Below, piece by piece: positions 4,344-58,103 of a stretch of DNA of 64,000 bases. Made by a program: the position numbers and the translations under genes. Each line of letters starts with the position of its first letter. The stretch's first letter is position 1. The stretch is from Candidatus Stammera capleta. GTDB lineage: Bacteria > Pseudomonadota > Gammaproteobacteria > Enterobacterales > Enterobacteriaceae. Below the pieces are notes generated by a model that saw only the letters and a program-made list of their open reading frames with translations, made no database searches and was not told where the DNA came from. The stretch is from contig CP144856.1 of the NCBI GenBank assembly GCA_036689555.1, positions 234,804-298,803 on the forward strand, given 5' to 3'.

Positions 4344-5033
4344 ATGAAAATTTTTTACTTAGAAAAAAAAATTAAATATAAATTTATAAATAAAAAAATA
4401 CTTTTTTTATCACTTACACATCGTAGTTACAGTAATATACATAATGAAAGATTAGAATTTTTAGGAGATTCAATATTAAATTTTATAATTACTAAAAAAA
4501 TATATCACCAATTTTCAAATAAAAAAGAAGGTTTTATGACTAGAATAAGAGCTAATTTAGTAAATAAAAATAATTTATGTAAAATAGCTCAAAAAATAAA
4601 ATTAAATAAATATATTTTACTAGGACAAGGAGAAATAAAAATGTTAGGACAATATAAAATATCTATATTAGCTAATACTTTAGAAGCTATAATAGGAGGT
4701 ATATTTATAGACAGTAAAAATATTAAAATAGTAGAAAAAATTATAAAAAAATTGTTTTTTAATTATAAAAATAATGAAAAAATATTAAATATAAAAAATA
4801 ATCATAAAGATTATAAAACTATTTTACAAGAATATTTACAAAAAATTAAATTACCTTTACCTAAATATTATATATCAGAAAAAAAAGGTAAAGAACATAA
4901 ACAAATATTTGTAGTTAAATGTAAAACAAAAATAATAAATAAAATTACTAAAGGTATAGGTTATAGTAAAAAAGAAGCAGAACAAAAATCTGCTAAACAA
5001 ACTTTAATTAAAATAGGATTAATTAAAAAATAA
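4344..5033 (+). CDS. rnc: ribonuclease III
   Basis: Single ORF of 229 aa. RNase III signature ERLEFLGDSILNF. C-terminal dsRBD-like KEAEQKSAKQTL. Confidence 0.95.
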   Translation: MKIFYLEKKIKYKFINKKILFLSLTHRSYSNIHNERLEFLGDSILNFIITKKIYHQFSNKKEGFMTRIRANLVNKNNLCKIAQKIKLNKYILLGQGEIKMLGQYKISILANTLEAIIGGIFIDSKNIKIVEKIIKKLFFNYKNNEKILNIKNNHKDYKTILQEYLQKIKLPLPKYYISEKKGKEHKQIFVVKCKTKIINKITKGIGYSKKEAEQKSAKQTLIKIGLIKK

Positions 5034-6552: not shown

Positions 6553-7542
6553 TTAAATATCAAAAAATAATTTTTTAATAAAAAACATATTCTTTCTAGC
6601 TTCTTTTTTAGCTTTTATTTTACCTTCTAATAAAATTTTTTTTAAGAAATTTTTTTTTTTACGAAAAAAAAAAAATTTTTCCTGTAATAAATTTAAAAAA
6701 TTTACTAATTTATTAATAACTATTTTTTTAAAATCTTTATATGAATAACTAATAAATTTTTTTTCTAATTCTAAAATAGATATATTACTAATATTAGATA
6801 AAATATTTAATAAATTAGATATTCCAGGTTTATTTATTATATCAAAAATAATTTTTGGAGGTATATCGTTATCAGTAAAAGCATGATTAATTTTAAAAGA
6901 AATTAAATTAGGATCATCTAATAAATAAATAACATTATATTTATTATTATCAGATTTAGACATTTTTTTATAAGGATTTAATAAAGACATAACTTTAGAA
7001 CAAGAAGAAAGAATATATTCAGGTGAATAAAATATTTGATTATTTAATAATTTATTAATTCTTTTAACAATATTACATGTAAATTCTAAATGTTGAATTT
7101 GATCTTGACCAATAACTACATAATTAGAATTATATAATAATATATCAGCAGCCATTAAAATAGGATAAGTAAATAAACCACAATTAATAAATTTATCATT
7201 TTTAATTTTCGATTTTTCTTTAAATTGTGTCATACGTTTTAATTCACCTATATAAGAACAACAACTTAATAATCAATATAATTGAGTATGTTCATAAATA
7301 TGTGATTGTAAAAAAATAACATTTCTTTTATAATCTATATTTAAAGCTAATAATATTGATAATATATCTCATATATATTTTTTTTTTTCTTTAAAATTAT
7401 CAGTATAAGAATGTAAATCTGCTATACAATAAAAACAATTATATTTTTTTTGGATTAAAAATCATTTTTTTAAAACACCTATATAATGACCTATAGTAAT
7501 ACCACCATTAGGTTGAATAGCACTAAAAACTTTTTTTTTCAT
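6553..7542 (-). CDS. trpS: tryptophanyl-tRNA synthetase
   Basis: ATG 7542. [27 protein letters not shown](TGA). KMSKS present (YKKMSKSD). In frame with ORF 6553-7233. 329 aa versus about 334 in E. coli. Confidence 0.94.
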
Positions 7543-21132: not shown

Positions 21133-22467
21133 TTAAATTAAAATACCATATAAATAATTTTTATATAATTTTAAAATTTTTACTTCAACTAATTTACCTA
21201 AAAATAATTTACTACATTTAAAATAAATTATTTTACTATTCTCAGTATAACCAAAATAAAAATCTGGATTTTTATTAGAAATACCTTCAACTAATACTTT
21301 TTGTATAGAATTAATCATTTTGTTAATTCAATAAATAGAATTTAAATAAAGTAAATCATTAATTTTATATAATCTATTTTTTTTTTTTTTTATACTTATA
21401 TTATCTAAAATATTAAAAGATCTAGTATGTGGTCTAGGTGAATACATAAATACAAAACTATTATCAAATTTAATTTCTGATATTAAATCTAAAGTTAATT
21501 GAAAATCATCATCAGTTTCTGAAGGAAAACCAACTATAAAATCAGAACCAAAAACCATATTTTTTCTAACACATAAAATTTTTTTAATTAATTTTTTATA
21601 ATATTCTACAGTATAACCTCTACGCATCTTTTTTAAAATATTATTTGAACCACTTTGAATAGGTAAATGTAAAAAATTAATTATTTTATCTATTTTACTA
21701 TAAGAATTTATCAATTCATTAGTGAAATTATTAGGATGACTAGTAGTAAATTTTATTCTTTTAATACCATCTATATTAGATACTAATTTTAATAAATCAG
21801 AAAAATTACATTTTTTATTATTTTTAAAAAAACTATTGTAAGCATTAACATTTTGACCTAATAAATTTATTTCAGAAATACCATATAAAGATAATCTACA
21901 TATTTCAGAAATAATATTTTCTGGAGACCTACTAATTTCTTTACCTCTAGTAAAAGGAACTATACAATAAGAACAAAATTTATTACAACCTTCCATAATA
22001 GAAACATAAGATAATGATCTTCTATTAAAATTTAAATTATATTTATTAGAAGTAATAATATTTTTTTCTATACCAGAAAAAGATACATCAATAATTTTTT
22101 TTTTATTTTTTCTAAAATCTAAAATAAAATCATAAATTTTATGTAAAGTCTGCGGACCAAAAATTATATCAACAACATTATTACGTGAAAAAATATTTTC
22201 TTTTTCTTGTACTGAAACACAACCACCTACAGCAACAATTAAATTATTTTTATATTTTTTAATATTCTTAATTCTATCAAGAAAAAAAAATAATTTATCT
22301 TGAGCTTTTTGACGTACTGAACAAGTATTTAATATAATTATATTTGCATCATTTAAACAATAAACCAATAAATATTTCATATAATTACTTAAATATACTT
22401 TAATTTTATTTGAATCATAATGATTCATTTGACAACCTCAAGTTTTTATATATATTTTTTCACACAT
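21133..22467 (-). CDS. miaB: tRNA-i6A37 methylthiotransferase MiaB
   Basis: ATG 22467. MCEKIYIKTW(TGA 22438-22440)GCQMNHYDS. Radical-SAM CNKFCSYCIVP. Three pieces are in one frame across TGA. 444 aa. Confidence 0.93.
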
Positions 22468-39018: not shown

Positions 39019-40035
39019 ATGATAATATTAGGTATAGAAACATCATGTGATGAAACTAGTATAAGTATATATACAAAAAAAAAAGGTATTATTATTAACA
39101 AAATTTATAGTCAAACTATACATTCTATGTATGGTGGAGTAGTACCAGTATTAGCTTCTAGAAATCATTCTAAAAAAATAATATTTTTAATTAAAAAAGT
39201 AATTCAAAAAACAAAAATAAAATTTAAAAATATAAATGCTATAGCATTTACTGCAGGACCTGGATTACCTAATTCTTTATTAATAGGAACAACTGTAGCT
39301 AAAACATTAGAATTAATATATAAAATACCTTCAATACCTATAAATCATATTGAAGGACATATAATGTCAATTATGTTAGCTAATAAAAAACCTTCTTTTC
39401 CATTTATATCATTAATTACTTCTGGAGCACATACTCTTTTAGTAATCGTTTATAAATATCAAAAATATAAAATTATAGGATATTCTTTAGATGATTCTGC
39501 AGGAGAAACATTTGATAAAATAGGAAATTTAATAGGATTAAAATATCCAGCAGGAAAAAAAATATCTCAATTAGCTAAATATGGAAAAAAAAATTTAAAT
39601 TTTCCAAAACCTATTATTAATAAATATAATTACTGTTTCAGTTTTTCAGGACTTAAAACACATATATATTATTTTATTAAAAAAAATATTAAAAATATTA
39701 ATAAATATCAATTTAAATGTGATATATGTTTTTCCTTAGAAAAAAGCATAACAGAAATATTAGTATATAAATCAAAAAAAGCACTTATTAAATTTAATAT
39801 TAAAAATTTATCAGTAGTAGGAGGAGTAAGTGCTAATAATACATTAAGAAAAAAAATTAAACGAATGACTAAAAAAATAAATAAAAAATGTTTTTTTACT
39901 AAAAAAAAATTATGTACAGATAATGCTGCTATGATAGCTTATACTGGATATTTAAAAATAAAAAAAAAAAAAAAATATAAACAAAATATTAAAATTAAAA
40001 TAAAACCTAAATGAAATATTAATGAAAAATTTTAA
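39019..40035 (+). CDS. tsaD: tRNA t6A37 threonylcarbamoyltransferase TsaD
   Basis: MIILGIETSCDETS..., ...NHIEGH..., ...SGAHT..., ...CTDNAAMIA. Divergent from rpsU as in E. coli. Continues past TGA 40012-40014 to TAA 40033-40035. 338 aa. Confidence 0.93.
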
Positions 40036-41234
40036 TTTTTATTTATTTTTTTTCCTTTTAAAAAAAAATATATCTTTTTAAAGCGTAAATTATATAATTT
40101 TCTACTTATTTCATTTCCTTTAAAACCTAATTTAATAATATATTTATTTTTTATAAAAAAAATTACATTAAAAATATCTAATAAATAGCTATTTAAAAAT
40201 AAAAAAAAATTTTTATTTTTTAAAGGTAATAATTGAAAAATTTTTATTATACTTAAAATATCTTTCAATATTTTTGGTCTACGCCATATATCAACTTTAT
40301 AAAAAATATCTAAAATAGATTTTATGATATTTTTTTTATTTAAAAAATAAATTTTAAATAAAAAATTATATAAAAATTTAAATGATAAAAAATATTTTTT
40401 AGGTATATACAATCTACTACAAAAATTTTTTATTTTAATTAATAAAAAATCTTTATTTAAAAAAAATTTTTTTGATAATATTGTTTCATAAAAAAAAAAA
40501 CATAAAAAAGAAAAATTTAATTTTGTACTACATTTTAAATGTAATAATCTAATAGATAAAAAACTAAAATATATTTTTTTAAGTTTATTTTTAAATAAAT
40601 TAATCATCTCTGGAAAAATTAATTCTAAAGCTTTACATTTATTTAAAATATTAAAATATCAAAAAATATTAAAATTTTTTAAAACTTTTTTTGTTTCTAT
40701 TCAAATTCTTTCTACACTTAATGATAATAATTCACCAGAAGATGAGATTTTATTCATTAAAAATAATGTTTTAGGATGAATAGAAAATTTAAAATTTAAA
40801 AAACGGGAATAAAATTGAGCTACTCTAAAAATTCTTAATGGATCATCGGAAAAAAAATGAGATACATGTCTTATAATACGATTTTTAATATCTTTAATAC
40901 CTTTATAAGGATCATAATAATTACCTTTATTATCTAAAGCTATAGCATTGATAGTTAAATCTCTACGAAATAAATCTTGTTTTAAAGTAACTTTATTAGA
41001 AAAATTACATATAAAACCGTTATAACCTAATCCAATTTTTTTCTCTGTACGAGCTAAGGCATATTCTTCTTTAGTTATAGGATGAATAAAAACAGGAAAA
41101 TGGTTACCAACAGATTTAAAACCTAAATTTACCATTTCTTGATATGAAGAACCTATTACTACTCAATCTCTATCTCTAATATTTATACCTAATAATTTAT
41201 CTCTTACAGCTCCTCCAACAAGATAAAATTTCAT
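40032..41234 (-). CDS. cca: CCA-adding tRNA nucleotidyltransferase
   Basis: ATG 41234. [24 protein letters not shown](TGA)VV..., ...RRDLTINAIA.... Three pieces are in one frame. 400 aa versus about 412 in E. coli. The C-terminal half is poorly conserved. Confidence 0.88.
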
Positions 41235-48757: not shown

Positions 48758-50065
48758 ATGTCTATAAAAAAAAAAATTAATTTATTAATCAAAAAATACA
48801 AAAATTTCTTAGTTGGATTTAGTGGAGGTGTAGATTCTACTGTATTATTATATGAATTATATAAACAATCATTAAAAAAAAATATATATATTAGAGCTAT
48901 ACATATAAATCATAATATTAACCCATTATCTTATAAATGATCATATCATTGTAAAAAAATATGTAAAAAATTGAATATTAAATTACTTATAGAAAAAGTA
49001 AGTACTAAAATCAAAAAAAATATAGAATGTACTTTAAGAAAAATAAGATATTCAATATATAAAAAAAAAATGTTAAATAATGAAATAATATTAACAGCAC
49101 ATAATAAAAATGATCAATGCGAAACTTTTTTTTTAGCTTTAAAAAGAGGTAGTGGTCCAAAAGGTTTATCTGGTATTAAAAAAAAAATAAAAATTAATAA
49201 AAAAAATTTTATTTATAGACCTTTATTAAAAATTAGTAAAAATAAAATTCAAAAATATGCAATAAAAAATAAATTAAAATGAATTGAAGATGATAGTAAT
49301 AATAATATTAAATTTGAAAGAAATTTTTTAAGATTATTAATAATTAAAAAATTAGTTCAAAAATGACCACATTTTCTATCTTCAGTATATAGAAGTGCTA
49401 AAATATGTTGAGAACAAGAAAAAATATTAAATAATATATTTAAAAAAAAAATAAAAAAAAAATATATATATAAAAATTCTTTAAAATTAAAAAATATATT
49501 TTTATTAACTAAAAATGAACAATTTATAATTACTAGAATATGAATAAAAAAAAATAAAAAAAAAATGATTTCATATAAATTAATGAAAGATATGTGAAAA
49601 AAAATAATAAAATATAAAAAAAAAATATATTTTAAATTTATTTTTAAAAAATTTATAATTAATAAATATAAAAATAATTTATATTTAACTAAAAAATATA
49701 AAGATATAAATAAAACATCATTTTTATGAAAGAATATTAAAAAAAAATTTTATTTACCTAACAAAAATGGATATCTAAAAATAATAAAATCAAAAAAAAA
49801 AAATAAAAATTTAATTAGAAAAATATATAAAAATGAATTTATTTATATAAAATTTAAAATAAAAAATAAAATAAAAATCAAAAACAAAAAATCTAAAAAA
49901 ATCAAAAAAATATGACAGGAAAAAAAAATTTTTCCATGAAAAAGAAAATATATACCTATTATCTTTTATAATGAAAAACCTATTTTATGTCCAAATATTT
50001 TTATTACTAAAGAAGGGGAACCTAAAAAAGAAAAAAAAACATGAGTAATAAAATGAGTAAAATAA
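48758..50065 (+). CDS. tilS: tRNA(Ile)-lysidine synthase
   Basis: PP-loop VGFSGGVDSTVL, TAHNKNDQCETF, YRPLL. C-terminal KKIW(TGA)QEKKIFPW(TGA)KRKYIPIIFYNEKPI parallels the E. coli TilS tail. N- and C-terminal motifs are in the same frame. TAA 50063-50065. 435 aa. Confidence 0.9.
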
Positions 50066-52305: not shown

Positions 52306-52378
52306 AGGTCTATAGCTCAGCGGCAAGAGCACACCCCTGATAAGGGTGAGGTCAGTGGTTCAAATCCGCTTAGACCTA
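52306..52378 (+). tRNA. tRNA-Ile (GAT)
   Basis: AGGTCTATAGCTCAGCGGCAAGAGCACACCCCTGATAAGGGTGAGGTCAGTGGTTCAAATCCGCTTAGACCTA. The anticodon arm is identical to E. coli tRNA-Ile(GAU). Confidence 0.92.
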
Positions 52379-52383
52379 AATTT

Positions 52384-52456
52384 AGGGGTATAGTTTAATC
52401 CGGTAGAATAATGGTCTCCAAAATCATAGGTTAAGGTTCAAATCCTTCTACCCCTG
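52384..52456 (+). tRNA. tRNA-Trp (CCA anticodon)
   Basis: AGGGGTATAGTTTAATCCGGTAGAATAATGGTCTCCAAAATCATAGGTTAAGGTTCAAATCCTTCTACCCCTG. Acceptor AGGGGTA/TACCCCT with discriminator G, anticodon loop CTCCAAA as in E. coli tRNA-Trp. D stem GTTT/GAAT gives T11-A24. Confidence 0.9.
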
Positions 52457-52458
52457 TA

Positions 52459-52506
52459 AATAGGATATTTTTTTAAAAAATATTTTTTTTAAAAAAATAT
52501 CCTATT
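52459..52506. terminator. 48-nt near-perfect palindrome between the convergent tRNA-Ile/Trp unit and ompR (putative bidirectional intrinsic terminator)
   Basis: AATAGGATATTTTTTT (52459-52474) is the exact reverse complement of AAAAAAATATCCTATT (52491-52506). The 16-nt centre AAAAAATATTTTTTTT is itself mostly self-complementary. T-runs flank the stem on both strands. Confidence 0.6.
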
Positions 52507-52534: not shown

Positions 52535-53266
52535 TTATTGTATATTATTATTGTTACTATCTGGTACAAATACATAACCTAATCCTCAAACAGTTTGTAT
52601 ATATCTTGGTTTAAAAGAATTATTTTCTATTAAACGACGTAATCTTGATATTTGAACATCTATAGATCTTTCAATAGCATTATATTCTTTACCTCTAGCT
52701 AAAAACATTAATTTTTCTCTAGACAAAGGTTTTTTAGCATTATTTATTAAAACTTTTAATATAGAAAATTCACTACTGGTTAAAAAAATTTTTTTGTTAT
52801 CCTTAAACATTTCTCTAGTAATTAAATTCAATTCACAATTTCCAAATTTTACTATAATATCTTCTTTAAATAAGGAAATACTAGATGTTTCATAATATTG
52901 ACGTCTTAATAAAGATCTTATACGAGCTAATAATTCTCTAGGATTAAAAGGTTTAGAAATATAATCATCAGCACCTATTTCTAAACCAATAACACGGTCT
53001 ATATCATCATTTTTAGCTGTTACTATTATTATAGGAATAAAATTATCTTCACTACGTAATCTTTTACATACTGATAAACCATCTTCACCAGGTAAAACTA
53101 AATCTAATATAATTAAATGAAATATTTCTCTAACTAATAATCTTTGCATTTGTATAGAATTTACAACATTTTTAACATTAAAATTATATTTATTTAAATA
53201 ATTTTTTAAAATAGATATCAATTCTATATCATCATCTACAATTAAAATTTTTTTATTTTCTAACAT
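52535..53266 (-). CDS. ompR: OmpR-family response regulator, OmpR orthologue
   Basis: KILIVDDD, HLIILDLVLPGEDGLSVCKRLRS, IIIVTAK, IGADDYISKPFNPRELLARIR, ERSIDVQISRLRR, PRYIQTVW(TGA 52586-52588)GLGYVFVPD. Near-identical blocks to E. coli OmpR. TAA 52535-52537. 243 aa. Confidence 0.95.
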
Positions 53267-53370: not shown

Positions 53371-53943
53371 TTATATATTATTTAAATTATTTACACGAGA
53401 TTGATAAGAAAAATATTTTGTATTCACTTTAATAAAATCCCCTACATTAATAAAATTAGGAACCTTTATTTTAAAACCAGTAATTAACTTTACATATTTT
53501 ATATTTGAAGAAAAATTATTTTTTTTATTAATATCAATTTCTATAACTTTTAATATAACATATTTAGGTAATAAAATATTTATAGGATAATTATTTCAAA
53601 ATACAATTTTATAAAAATTATTTATATATATTAAAAAAACATATTTTTCAACTATTTTTTTAGATAAAAATATTTGATTATAATTATACTTATTTAAAAA
53701 ATATCAATTATCCTTAAAATTATATATATATAAATATTTTTCTATATAGATATTAGCTTTTTTAATATTGTTAAAAAACTTAAATGTTTTAATAATTAAT
53801 TTATTTGTGATTCAATTTCTTATTTTAGTACGTATAAATTTATGACCTTTACCAGGTTTAATAAAATCAACAAATTCTATTTTATAAGGTTCATTAGAAT
53901 AAATAATATTATTACCAATAAAAAAAATTTCTTTTAAATTCAT
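53371..53943 (-). CDS. efp: elongation factor P
   Basis: Not in the ORF track (three TGA). ATG 53943. ...YKIEFVDFIKPGKGHKFIRTKIRNW(TGA)... (KPGKG loop with the modified Lys). TAA 53371-53373. 190 aa. Confidence 0.88.
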
Positions 53944-54043: not shown

Positions 54044-55522
54044 ATGAAATATAAAATACTAAAAAATAATAAAAATTATTACAAAAAAAACGATTGTGCC
54101 ATAATAAATATATATAAAAACAGTAAAATTAAACAAAATATTTTAAAATATAATTTAATATTAAAAGAAATAAAAAAATATAATTTTAAAGGAAAAATTA
54201 ATACATATTTAGTCATAAAAGATATAAATTCTATTAAAAAAGAAGATTGTATTTTAATAGGATGTGGAGAAAAAAAAAAACTAAATAAAAATATATTTAA
54301 AAAAATTATTAATAATTCTTTTAAAATTATAAAAAAACATAACTATAAAAATATAATTTATTTATTAAACAAAATAAAAATAAAAAAAAAAATATTTTGA
54401 AAAATATTTAATATAATTAAAATATTTAAAAAAAAAACTTATTTATTTAATAAATTTAAAAATAAAAAAATTAATAAATATAAAAATATAAAAATAAATT
54501 TTTTAGTAAATAAAAAAAGAGAATATATATTAACAAAACAAGCTATCTATAAATCTTTAATAATATTTAAAGGAATTAAAATATCTAAAAATATATGTAA
54601 TACTCCACCAAATATATGTAATTCTATATATATATATAAAAAAATAAAAAAAAAATTTAATAATTCAAATGTTAGAATTTCATGTTTAAATAAAAAAAAA
54701 ATGTCATCTATTGGTATGAATGCATACTTATCAGTAAATAAAGGTTCTTATAATGAACCATTAATGATTAAAATTCAATATAATAATAATTATAATATGA
54801 AACCTATAATTTTAATAGGTAAAGGTATAACATTTGATTCTGGAGGAATATCATTAAAACCATCAAAAAATATGTATAAAATGAAATATGATATGTCAGG
54901 TGCAGCATCTATATATGGAATTATGTATATAATATCAAAATTAAATATTAAAATTAATTTAATAGGTATACTAGCATGCGCAGAAAACATAATTGATAGT
55001 TACTCAACTAAACCTGGAGATGTTATAAAAACATTATCCAAAAAAACTATCGAAATAATTAATACTGATGCTGAAGGAAGATTAATATTATGTGACGTAT
55101 TAACTTATGTAAAAAAATTTAACCCAAAATTTGTTATTGATATTGCAACACTTACTGGATCATGTGCTATAGCATTAGGTAATAAAATTAATGGTTTATT
55201 ATCAAATAATAAAAAATTATCTTCATGTTTAATAAAATCAAGTTTAGATATAGATGAATATATACATGAACTACCATTATTTAATAAATACAAAAAATAT
55301 TTAAAATCTAATATAGCAGACATTAAAAATTGCTCAAATACACCATATGGTGGAACAATTATAGCAGCATGTTTTTTATCTTATTTTGCTAAAAAATATA
55401 AATGAGCACATATTGATATTGCGGGAACAGCATATAATAATAAAGGATCTACAGGACAACCAATAAATATAATTGTTCAATTTTTAATTAATTATATTAA
55501 AAAAAAAAATGAAAAAAAATAA
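54044..55522 (+). CDS. pepA: leucyl aminopeptidase PepA
   Basis: ORFs 54044-54400 and 54701-55405 are in one frame. [16 protein letters not shown]17 signature [19 protein letters not shown]. Continues past TGA to TAA 55520-55522, overlapping the valS ATG by 14 nt. 492 aa. Confidence 0.93.
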
Positions 55523-58103
55523 TTTAAATAAAAAAAAATATAATTTAATTTATTCATATTGGAAAAAAAATAAATTATTTACACCAAATATAAATAAAAA
55601 TAATAAAAAAAATTTTTCTATAATTATGCCTCCACCTAATATAACTGGATATTTACATATAGGACATGCTTTTCAACAAACTATTATGGATGTAATAATA
55701 AGATATAAAAAAATGTCTAATTATAATACATTATGAATAATGGGTACAGATCATGCTGGAATATCTACACAAATAATAGTAGAAAACTATATAAAAAAAA
55801 AATATAAAATATTTAAAAAAATACCTAAAAAAAAAATTATTAGTGAAATATGAAAATGAAAAAAAAAACATGAAAAAAAAATTTACCAACAAACCAAAAT
55901 TTTAGGTAGTTCTGTAGATTGATCAAGAACATGTTTTTCATTAGATAAAAATTTTACTAAATCTGTACAAAAAATTTTTATATATTTATATAAAAAAAAA
56001 CTAATATATAAAAATAAAAAAGCTATATATTGAGACAAAAAAATTCAATGTGTTCTATCAGATTTAGAAATAAATAAAGAAAAAAAAATACTAAAAAATT
56101 ATTTTATAAAATTAAATTTTTTAAATAATAAAAATTATTTAATAATAGAAACTACCAAACCAGAATTAATATTAGGTATAACAGCATTAGCTGTAAATAA
56201 AAAAAAAAAAACATTAGTAGGAAAAAAATTAATTAATCCAATAACTAAAAATATCATTAAAATAATTTACAGTAAAAAAATTATACACTCAAAAAAAAAA
56301 CAATATATTAAAATTATTCCTGGACATAAAATAAATCATTTAATTTATTGCAAAAAATTTAATTTAAATATAATTAATATTTTAAATTTTAATGGATCAT
56401 TTAAAAAAAAAATTAAAATATTAAATTATAAATGAGAAGAAAAAAAAAAAATTAATATTACTAAAATACTAAATATAAAAAAATTAAATTATAAATATAT
56501 AAAAAAAAAAATCATTAATTTTTTAAAAAAGAAAAAACATATTTTAAAAATTAAAAATAAAAAATCTAAAATATATTTAAGTAACAAAACTAATACTAAA
56601 CCTATTATAATAATTACTAATCAATGATATTTAAAAACTAATCCTTTAGCTAAAAAAGCTATTAATTTAGTAAAAAGAAAAAAAATAATTTTTATTCCTA
56701 CAAAATATAAAAAACTTTTTTTTAAATGAATGGAAAATATACAAGATTGATGTATATCAAGACAAATATATTGAGGACATAAAATACCTATTTGGTATGA
56801 TAAAAATAATAATATATACGTAGGAAAAAATAAAAAAGAAATTTTATCTAAATATAAAATAAAAACTAAATTAAAACAAGATAAAAGCGTTTTAGATACA
56901 TGATTTTCTTCATCAATATGATCATTTACATCATTAGGATGACCTAAAAACAATACACTTCTAAAAAAATTTTATCCTATTAATTTAATTGTAAGTGGTT
57001 TTGATATAATTTTTTTTTGAATATCTAGAATGATTATGATAACTTCATATATATCAAAAAAATATACTTATCTAAAAATCCCATTTAAAAAAATATTTCT
57101 CACAGGATTAATTAGGGATGAAAATGGTAATAAAATGTCTAAATCAATAGGAAATGTAATTGATCCTGTAGATATTATAGAAGGTATAAAATTAAATAAA
57201 TTAATTAAAAAAAGAATTAAAAATGTAATAAAACAACAAATGGTATATAAAATTATTAAAGACACTAAAAAACAATTTCCAAATGGAATAAAACCTTATG
57301 GAGTAGATGTTTTAAGACATACTTTATGTTCTATATCCAATACTAAATTAAAAATTAATTTTGATATAAAAAAATTAACTCATAGTTATAATTATTGTAA
57401 TAAAATATGAAATATATATATATTTATATTTAAATATTTAAATTTAAAAATAAATAAAAAAAAAATTAATAAAAAAAAATTAAATTTAATTGAACATTGA
57501 ACATTAAATAATATTAATTTATTAATTAATAAATTTAAACAAAATATAAAAAAATTTAGATTTGACTTAATTAATCAAATAATGTTTTTTTTTATTAAAA
57601 ATATTTTTTCTGATTGATATATAGAAATAATTAAAATTAAAATTAAAGACAATAATTTTAGTACAAATAACAAATTAGTATTAATTTATATTTTTTTAAC
57701 TATATTAAAATTATCTCATCCTATAACTCCGTTTATCACAGAATATATATGAATTAAAATTAACTATGTAAATAATTCTATATTAAAAACAAAATTTCCT
57801 AAATATAAAAATTTTTTAAATAATAATAAAATAAGTAAAATATTTAATATAATACAAAAAATTATAATTTATATAAGAAAAATTAATAAAAAATTTAAAT
57901 TAAAAATATCTTTTTTAATAATTTTAGATCTGAATTTAGATAAAAAAAATTTTTTTATAAAAAATATATATATATTTAAATTTATTAAAATACAGAAAAT
58001 TATTTTTTCCAGAACAAAAATTTTTAATAAATCAAATTTTAAAAAAAATAAAAAAAAAATTATAAAAAAAAAAATTAGTGGTATTACTATATTAAGTTAC
58101 TAA
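55509..58103 (+). CDS. valS: valyl-tRNA synthetase
   Basis: [13 protein letters not shown] (HIGH), W(TGA)CISRQIYW(TGA)GHKIPIW(TGG)[17 protein letters not shown]...FSDW(TGA)[20 protein letters not shown](TGA). All checked motifs are in the frame of ATG 55509. TAA 58101-58103. 864 aa versus about 951 in E. coli (short C-terminus). Confidence 0.93.

Follow-up and report, generated by a model that had tools for sequence, protein, structure and literature searches.

The tRNA-Trp(CCA) of the UGA-recoded symbiont Candidatus Stammera capleta carries a U11:A24 pair that is shared with standard-code relatives

Results

The tRNA-Trp gene and its neighbors

The stretch of DNA analyzed here, 64 kb of a Candidatus Stammera capleta genome (hereafter the window), contains a tRNA-Trp gene with the anticodon CCA (C34, C35, A36) at 52384..52456 on the forward strand. 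ARAGORN called this gene as tRNA-Trp(cca) at 52383-52457 (+), and the Rfam family RF00005 matched at 52384-52456 with 62.2 bits (E=4.4e-11; gathering score 29). The sequence itself, the covariation, and a parse of the locus in 17 lineages agree with the assignment, and the tRNA call is certainly beyond chance. The gene is one of the 12 tRNAs that ARAGORN detected in the window, and no tRNA with a UCA anticodon was among these 12. A first-pass annotation made from the letters of the window had described a lone tRNA-Trp with a CCA anticodon, a U11:A24 pair in the D stem, a D loop of 9 nt, and a T/C mismatch at the top of the T stem, and all of these readings were borne out.

Divided by structural elements, the tRNA-Trp gene reads AGGGGTA-TA-GTTT-AATCCGGTA-GAAT-A-ATGGT-CTCCAAA-ATCAT-AGGT-TAAGG-TTCAAAT-CCTTC-TACCCCT-G. 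G10/U25, U11:A24, U12:A23, and U13/G22 make up the D stem around a 9-nt loop, and the variable loop is 4 nt long. The anticodon stem is nominally 5 bp long, including A27:U43 and G30/U40, and it is followed by the anticodon loop CTCCAAA with its A36-A37-A38 motif. A9 is kept, the T stem contains a U49/C65 mismatch, and the discriminator after the acceptor 3' strand is G73. The main identity elements for TrpRS, which are the anticodon CCA and G73, are thus both present, together with the canonical stems and the T loop of a bacterial tRNA-Trp. When we compared nine Stammera sequences (the window and eight relatives), 96.8% of the cells of the cloverleaf were paired and compensatory changes were found at three pairs, whereas slid registers were only 41-60% paired.

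The Y11:R24 pair of tRNAs ordinarily takes one of two forms, of which U11:A24 is one, and its mere presence is therefore not statistically remarkable. For E. coli, the first-pass annotation had given U11:G24 at this place. An E. coli trpT query matched an annotated tRNA-Trp in all 5,426 of 5,426 complete E. coli genomes, with an identity of at least 99% in 5,394 of them, and this query indeed carries U11/G24.

The tRNA-Trp gene is preceded by a tRNA-Ile(GAU) gene (52306..52378, +; ARAGORN), which lies 5 nt upstream on the same strand, and the two tRNAs are probably made on one shared transcript. The Ile-Trp pair is syntenic at every Stammera locus with tRNAs called. Three nucleotides past tRNA-Trp, a perfect 22-nt inverted repeat spans 52459..52506 (52459-52480 and 52485-52506, with a 4-nt spacer). 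It consists almost entirely of A/T and separates the tRNA pair from a convergent gene for an OmpR-like response regulator, a position at which it may serve as a bidirectional terminator or as a processing hairpin. The OmpR-like gene itself (52535-53266) is absent in the related lineages L203, L206, L209, L210, and L211, and an EnvZ-like sensor kinase still adjoins it in L202 and L207; this patchy presence points to ongoing loss of the two-component system across Stammera.

Several genes that bear on the function of tRNA-Trp are encoded in the window. The gene trpS (6553..7542, -; NCBIfam TIGR00233, 272.8 bits against a cutoff of 176.75) has three in-frame TGA codons, and its product, tryptophan--tRNA ligase, would be the enzyme that must charge tRNA-Trp. 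As the tRNA-Trp gene does not encode the 3' CCA (the gene sequence ends ...ACCCCTG-TAA), a CCA-adding enzyme is needed, and a cca gene is present at 40032..41234 (-); it matched NF009813 with E=6e-117 and a score under the curated cutoff (391.1 versus 606 bits). The gene miaB (21133..22467, -; TIGR01574, 473.2 bits against a cutoff of 355.3) encodes the ms2i6A37 methylthiotransferase. Because miaB is present and tRNA-Trp has the A36-A37-A38 motif, the hypermodification of A37, which steadies the reading of codons that start with U, is probably retained. In E. coli, tRNA-Trp carries ms2i6A37 (PMC5699536). Finally, tilS (48758..50065, +; TIGR02432/TIGR02433 above cutoff, NF007942 with E=1e-115) encodes lysidine(34) synthetase, the sole C34-modifying enzyme seen in the window.

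UGA is a tryptophan codon in the window

The genome clearly uses genetic code 4 with UGA as a tryptophan codon, as the first-pass annotation had held. Under translation table 11, ORFs of at least 100 amino acids covered 51.0 kb and the longest had 627 amino acids; under table 4, the coverage rose to 75.0 kb and the longest ORF to 1415 amino acids. The 56 table-4 ORFs contain 145 in-frame TGA and 9 TGG codons, so that UGA makes up 94% of the tryptophan codons, and all 56 end in TAA (51) or TAG (5), with no UGA stops. The tryptophan columns of the window proteins are encoded by TGG in code-11 relatives. An example is valS (55509..58103, +), an essential gene that depends on UGA being read as tryptophan: it has 18 in-frame TGA and 2 TGG codons, and its TGA codons align with TGG/W of the code-11 relatives. 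Another is efp (53371..53943, -) with three in-frame TGA codons; its tryptophan position within FYKIVFWNNYPIN is TGA also in L207, a relative with incipient recoding.

The base after TGA (+4) showed no context bias and no enrichment of A in the 56 table-4 ORFs (chi-square p=0.55), and there is thus no sign of a context-dependent read-through. The G+C content of the window is 14-25%. An ORF for a release factor with the GGQ motif was found neither in the 64-kb window, which is about one fifth of the genome, nor in the first eight relative loci.

The U11:A24 pair in recoded and standard-code lineages

For a comparison within the genus, we used the syntenic tRNA-Trp locus of 17 Stammera lineages, comprising the window and 16 relatives, and called the code of each lineage by projecting the window proteins onto the locus of the relative. 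ProS, which is encoded beside the tRNA, is 51-81% identical to its counterparts in eight Candidatus Stammera capleta chromosomes, and for the neighboring HinT, an identical protein (100%) is encoded on an NCBI contig of 302,130 bp. Thirteen lineages were fully recoded, with 30-57 in-frame TGA and 0-6 TGG codons (the window, L010, L002, L001, L003, L005, L004, L202, L203, L206, L208, L210, and L211). Three lineages use the standard code and have no in-frame TGA and 48-49 TGG codons, namely L006 (CP144774.1), L007 (CP144777.1), and L209 (CP144793.1). In L006 and L007, all orthologues tested are intact under table 11, and genuine TGA stops occur where the homologues end (metG in L006, efp in L007).

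The remaining lineage, L207 (CP144790.1 = GCA_036689315.1), is incipient, with 2 in-frame TGA and 36 TGG codons. Its two TGA codons, at 7027 in efp and at 4739 in valS, both lie at conserved tryptophan positions of essential genes, and none of its orthologues ends in TGA. The L207 tRNA-Trp(CCA), just upstream of hinT, combines A24 with G30/U40 and a U27/U43 mismatch that leaves a 4-bp anticodon stem, and it possibly represents a transitional state of the tRNA.

The CCA anticodon and the U11:A24 pair were found in all 17 of the 17 lineages. As U11:A24 is common to the code-4, code-11, and incipient lineages, A24 is older than the recoding: judged from this distribution, it arose before the code change, and it coexists with UGA stop codons. 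The first-pass annotation had already cautioned that the pair also occurs in standard-code bacteria, which is the case in L006, L007, and L209. It had also proposed comparing positions 11 and 24 with close standard-code relatives, since an identical D stem there, if not accompanied by elevated UGA read-through, would speak against its reading, and the pair shared by these three lineages is largely this unfavorable outcome.

A UCA anticodon was likewise absent. The tRNA-Trp of the window and those of the 16 relatives all have CCA, and no tRNA-Trp(UCA) was found in the approximately 20-kb syntenic Stammera loci with tRNAs called. None of the sampled Stammera lineages shows a transition of C34 to U although the AT pressure favors this change, which hints at a constraint. 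We considered that UCA might have been avoided through loss of the enzymes that modify U34, but this idea is weakened by L206, a 246-kb Stammera genome in which MnmG (GIDA) of the U34 xm5U pathway is retained (312-2183, CP144813.1).

In neighbor-joining trees from 1,527 amino acid columns, the code-4 lineage L202 (CP144853.1) clustered with the code-11 lineages L006 and L007 with 82% bootstrap support, which fell to 55% after Dayhoff recoding. If real, this grouping would mean that UGA was captured more than once in Stammera, but it may be an artefact, and we do not claim single or multiple origins of the recoding from these trees.

Sequences from other bacteria complete the comparison. The 72 non-Stammera proS loci held a single tRNA-Trp sequence type (Deferrimicrobiaceae-like, C11:G24) and are thus uninformative on the frequency of the 11:24 states. 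The hinT locus of the Donacia symbiont, a standard-code outgroup, has an E. coli-like synteny with no tRNA nearby, and the timing of the change of G24 to A outside Stammera therefore rests on E. coli alone. A scan of metagenomes (pattern gap N{14,22}) yielded 117 'tRNA-Trp(CCA)' genes at 120 loci, of which the listed ones are 76-88 nt long. Most of these have long variable arms, and some have Ser/Leu-like D arms. As the gap of the pattern was wider than that of ordinary tRNA-Trp (about N{8,12}), this set does not represent bacterial tRNA-Trp at large and gives no frequency of U11:A24. The combination of a type-II-like tRNA with a CCA anticodon is peculiar, and the genes belong to crowded tRNA arrays (780 tRNAs at the 120 loci), which are probably phage clusters.

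Anticodon stem and D arm of the recoded lineages

In all 14 lineages with in-frame TGA codons, one or more pairs of the tRNA-Trp anticodon stem are not Watson-Crick. In 13 of them these include G30/U40, to which L207 adds its U27/U43 mismatch, and L210 has G27/U43 instead. The three code-11 lineages all have five Watson-Crick pairs. The D arm differed as well: the D loop has 9 nt in 13 of 13 fully recoded lineages, 8 nt in L207, and 7-8 nt in the code-11 lineages, and position 22 is G in 13 of 13 fully recoded lineages and A in L207 and the code-11 lineages. At 27:43, the other Stammera lineages have U:A, A:U, or G/U with compensatory change, and a mismatch occurs only in L207. For the anticodon arm taken alone, the energy was predicted to be -5.4 kcal/mol for E. 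coli, -2.2 for code-11 Stammera, +0.2 for the window, and -3.2 for Zinderia; by this prediction, the arm of the window tRNA would be weaker than the 4-bp arm of Zinderia.

Among nine tRNAs shared between the window and L006/L007, tRNA-Trp was the most diverged, with 12-13 differences. The other eight had 1-8 differences; against a mean of 4.5, the Poisson tail for tRNA-Trp is 0.0024, and inside the window's own clade tRNA-Trp is nearly invariant. As a control for the stem wobbles, we inspected eight other tRNAs, and G/U pairs in the anticodon stem turned out to be common in them; at 30:40 of tRNA-Pro, the distribution is almost the same as in tRNA-Trp (11/14 versus 0/3). As the control tRNAs show a similar G/U pattern, the correlation between recoding and the stem may reflect lineage-wide AT drift, and we downgraded the anticodon-stem wobble as a Trp-specific signal. 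The correlation of stem wobble and D-loop length with recoding is, at the level of sequence comparison, only suggestive.

Discussion

Stammera is known as a code-4 symbiont of tortoise leaf beetles, and code 4, a CCA anticodon only, and the loss of RF2 in most of its members have already been published. The Stammera reference genome has retained trnW(CCA) and has no prfB (PMC10540940, Table 2), and a survey found prfB in 15 of 49 Stammera genomes (PMC13462651, Table 2), with some code-4 members retaining the gene (PMC13462651). Five Stammera genomes that form a basal clade use the standard code and still contain prfB (gTranslate preprint). Fakih et al. (PMC13092985) explained UGA reading in Zinderia by a 4-bp anticodon stem, listed Stammera as 5-bp, and offered no mechanism for it. 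The point about U11:A24 was not found in the literature for Stammera.

As the only tRNA-Trp is the CCA form, UGA would be read either through a C34/A mismatch or by a modified C34. A way around this choice, a second tRNA-Trp(UCA) outside the window that reads UGA, is extremely improbable: the window covers no more than about a fifth of the genome (roughly 302 kb), but two independent surveys found this tRNA in none of 49 Stammera genomes (PMC13462651, Table 2; gTranslate preprint), Manzano-Marin et al. reported none in the reference genome (PMC10540940), and the syntenic loci described above contain none. We also regard it as very unlikely that C34 is modified to a lysidine-like base or edited to U after transcription, so that the mature anticodon would be cognate for UGA without any mismatch. 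An A-reading wobble base would suit the 94% share of UGA among the tryptophan codons, and the C34-modifying enzyme TilS is encoded 2.3 kb away from tRNA-Trp. However, an AUA-rich genome would be expected to have TilS for its tRNA-Ile2 in any case. The E. coli enzyme requires C4:G69 and C5:G68, and the window tRNA-Trp has G4:C69 and G5:C68 instead. Lysidine would, moreover, block the reading of UGG and disturb the TrpRS identity, and 9 TGG codons remain, some of them in essential genes. The editing variant has a precedent in trypanosomatid mitochondria, in which position 34 of tRNA-Trp is reported to undergo C-to-U editing (PMC8677022).

Two further explanations place the decisive change in the body of the tRNA. 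The first-pass annotation had suggested that C34-A decoding is licensed by the D arm, and in its strict form this means that the change of G24 to A, giving U11:A24, was the specific adaptive step that licensed C34/A decoding and the recoding in place of an anticodon mutation. In its favor, position 24 is A in the window and G in E. coli, the suppression of UGA by G24A is proven for E. coli, and the model of McCutcheon lets UGA recoding begin (step 1) with a mutation in a distal part of the tRNA (PMC2704378). Against this stands the invariance of A24 in the 17 lineages, which include three without in-frame TGA (two of them with TGA stops shown) and one that is barely recoded; A24 thus fails to tell recoded from non-recoded genomes. 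Fakih et al. dropped 2,414 of 3,438 genes for 4-bp-stem tRNA-Trp(CCA) because of A9C and/or G24A, and only 70 genomes with a 4-bp-stem tRNA-Trp(CCA) in their dataset use code 4 (PMC13092985), so that such states also occur outside recoded genomes. In Zinderia, the second code-4 symbiont with CCA only, the pair is C11:G24. A24 as the licensing change is therefore improbable and largely refuted, while the part of the first-pass suggestion that UGA is decoded without a change of the anticodon is supported. It is, in turn, doubtful that an anticodon stem with G/U wobbles or mismatches, together with the remodeled D arm, made tRNA-Trp flexible enough for UGA. The distribution of these features, the weak predicted arm, and the divergence of tRNA-Trp fit this idea, and a 4-bp-stem tRNA-Trp(CCA) reads UGA in experiment (PMC13092985). 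The control tRNAs speak against it, the pair 27:43 of the window tRNA-Trp is maintained by covariation, and we found no experimental data on 30:40 wobbles in the literature. In addition, since the neighbor-joining trees leave the deep branching unsettled, no more than one or two events in evolution may underlie the correlation.

With moderate confidence, we thus favor the view that the sole tRNA-Trp(CCA) reads UGA via a C34/A mismatch, that the absence of RF2 is the chief enabler, and that U11:A24 is a pre-adaptation at most. TrpRS would charge tRNA-Trp, the unchanged CCA anticodon would read UGG cognately, and UGA would be accepted with C34 mismatched to the A of its third position. Since most Stammera have, by published accounts, lost RF2, the kinetic rival of such reading would be removed. 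A permissive tRNA body probably helps, by U11:A24, the very weak anticodon and D stems, and probably ms2i6A37. U11:A24 would in this mechanism be a genus-wide ancestral state that may raise the basal reading of UGA and not a recoding-specific change. It is known that wild-type E. coli tRNA-Trp(CCA) reads UGA weakly, that G24A increases this reading approximately 30-fold (PMC4967479; PMC12213064), and that G24A works via the tRNA hinge and bending in the A/T state (PMC11805395; PMC13092985). By analogy with E. coli, A24 may have an effect in Stammera, although the body of the window tRNA is much diverged (A44, 4-nt variable loop, G10/U25). Mismatch reading looks inefficient for a genome in which UGA makes up nearly all tryptophan codons.

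The favored mismatch reading allows a tentative extension. The genus-wide U11:A24 tRNA-Trp may have been a natural Hirsh-type suppressor before the recoding, which made UGA leaky in the presence of RF2, so that the codon could be captured when RF2 decayed. In a second step, G30/U40, a lengthened D loop, and a temporary loss of the 27:43 pair of the kind seen in L207 could have weakened the anticodon stem and hinge and thereby raised the efficiency. If true, code 4 would have been reached in two steps and independently of the anticodon, and extant code-11, incipient, and fully recoded lineages would preserve the series.

The window tRNA-Trp resembles several known systems without coinciding with any of them. 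Like the Hirsh suppressor (E. coli trpT G24A, su9), it has an unchanged CCA anticodon, an A24 that pairs with U11, and a retained A9, and UGA is read as tryptophan. In contrast to the Hirsh suppressor, A24 in Stammera is not a new mutation but a state fixed throughout the genus including its standard-code members, so that it does not separate UGA readers from close non-readers, and the tRNA body differs strongly (G10/U25, U13/G22, A44, the 4-nt variable loop, and an AU-rich anticodon stem). Moreover, UGA is the main tryptophan codon of the window and RF2 is mostly absent in the genus according to the literature, whereas the Hirsh tRNA suppresses partially against RF2. With the 4-bp-stem tRNA-Trp(CCA) of Fakih et al., the window tRNA shares the CCA-only state in a UGA=Trp genome without a UCA tRNA and a destabilized anticodon stem, which has G30/U40 and only one G:C pair. 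The difference is that A27:U43 is formed in the window and maintained by covariation, where that type has an unpaired 27:43 with a 7-nt loop; Fakih et al. therefore class Stammera as 5-bp. Their 'Blastocrithidia-like' definition, which demands the lack of both A9C and G24A, also excludes the window tRNA by its A24, although A9 is retained. The tRNA-Trp of Zinderia, with C11:G24, has A27/C43, and among Stammera only the incipient L207 has an unpinned 27:43.

The tRNA-Trp(UCA) of Mycoplasmatales, Hodgkinia, Nasuia, and mitochondria is likewise the tryptophan decoder of UGA in code-4 genomes, but with the CCA anticodon of the window, the decoding of UGA would be near-cognate. Closer in kind is Candidatus Providencia siddallii PSAC, which has an early-stage code 4, trnW-CCA, and a UGA-interrupted prfB (PMC10540940). 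It is also an enterobacterial symbiont with trnW(CCA) only, and L207 with its 2 TGA and 36 TGG codons is comparably incipient, whereas the window genome is fully recoded with no UGA stops.

It is currently under study how bacteria that lack a UCA anticodon decode UGA as tryptophan. The 4-bp-stem explanation (2026) covers Zinderia and XS4 and leaves Stammera, as a member of the 5-bp class, unexplained, and the obvious candidate, a Hirsh-like A24, predates the code change in Stammera. Decoding without a change of the anticodon is supported in this genus, and A24 as the licensing change is not. As standard-code, incipient, and fully recoded Stammera differ at a handful of tRNA-Trp positions, they offer a natural series for tests of stop-codon capture, which bears on models of the evolution of the genetic code and on the engineering of near-cognate suppressor tRNAs.
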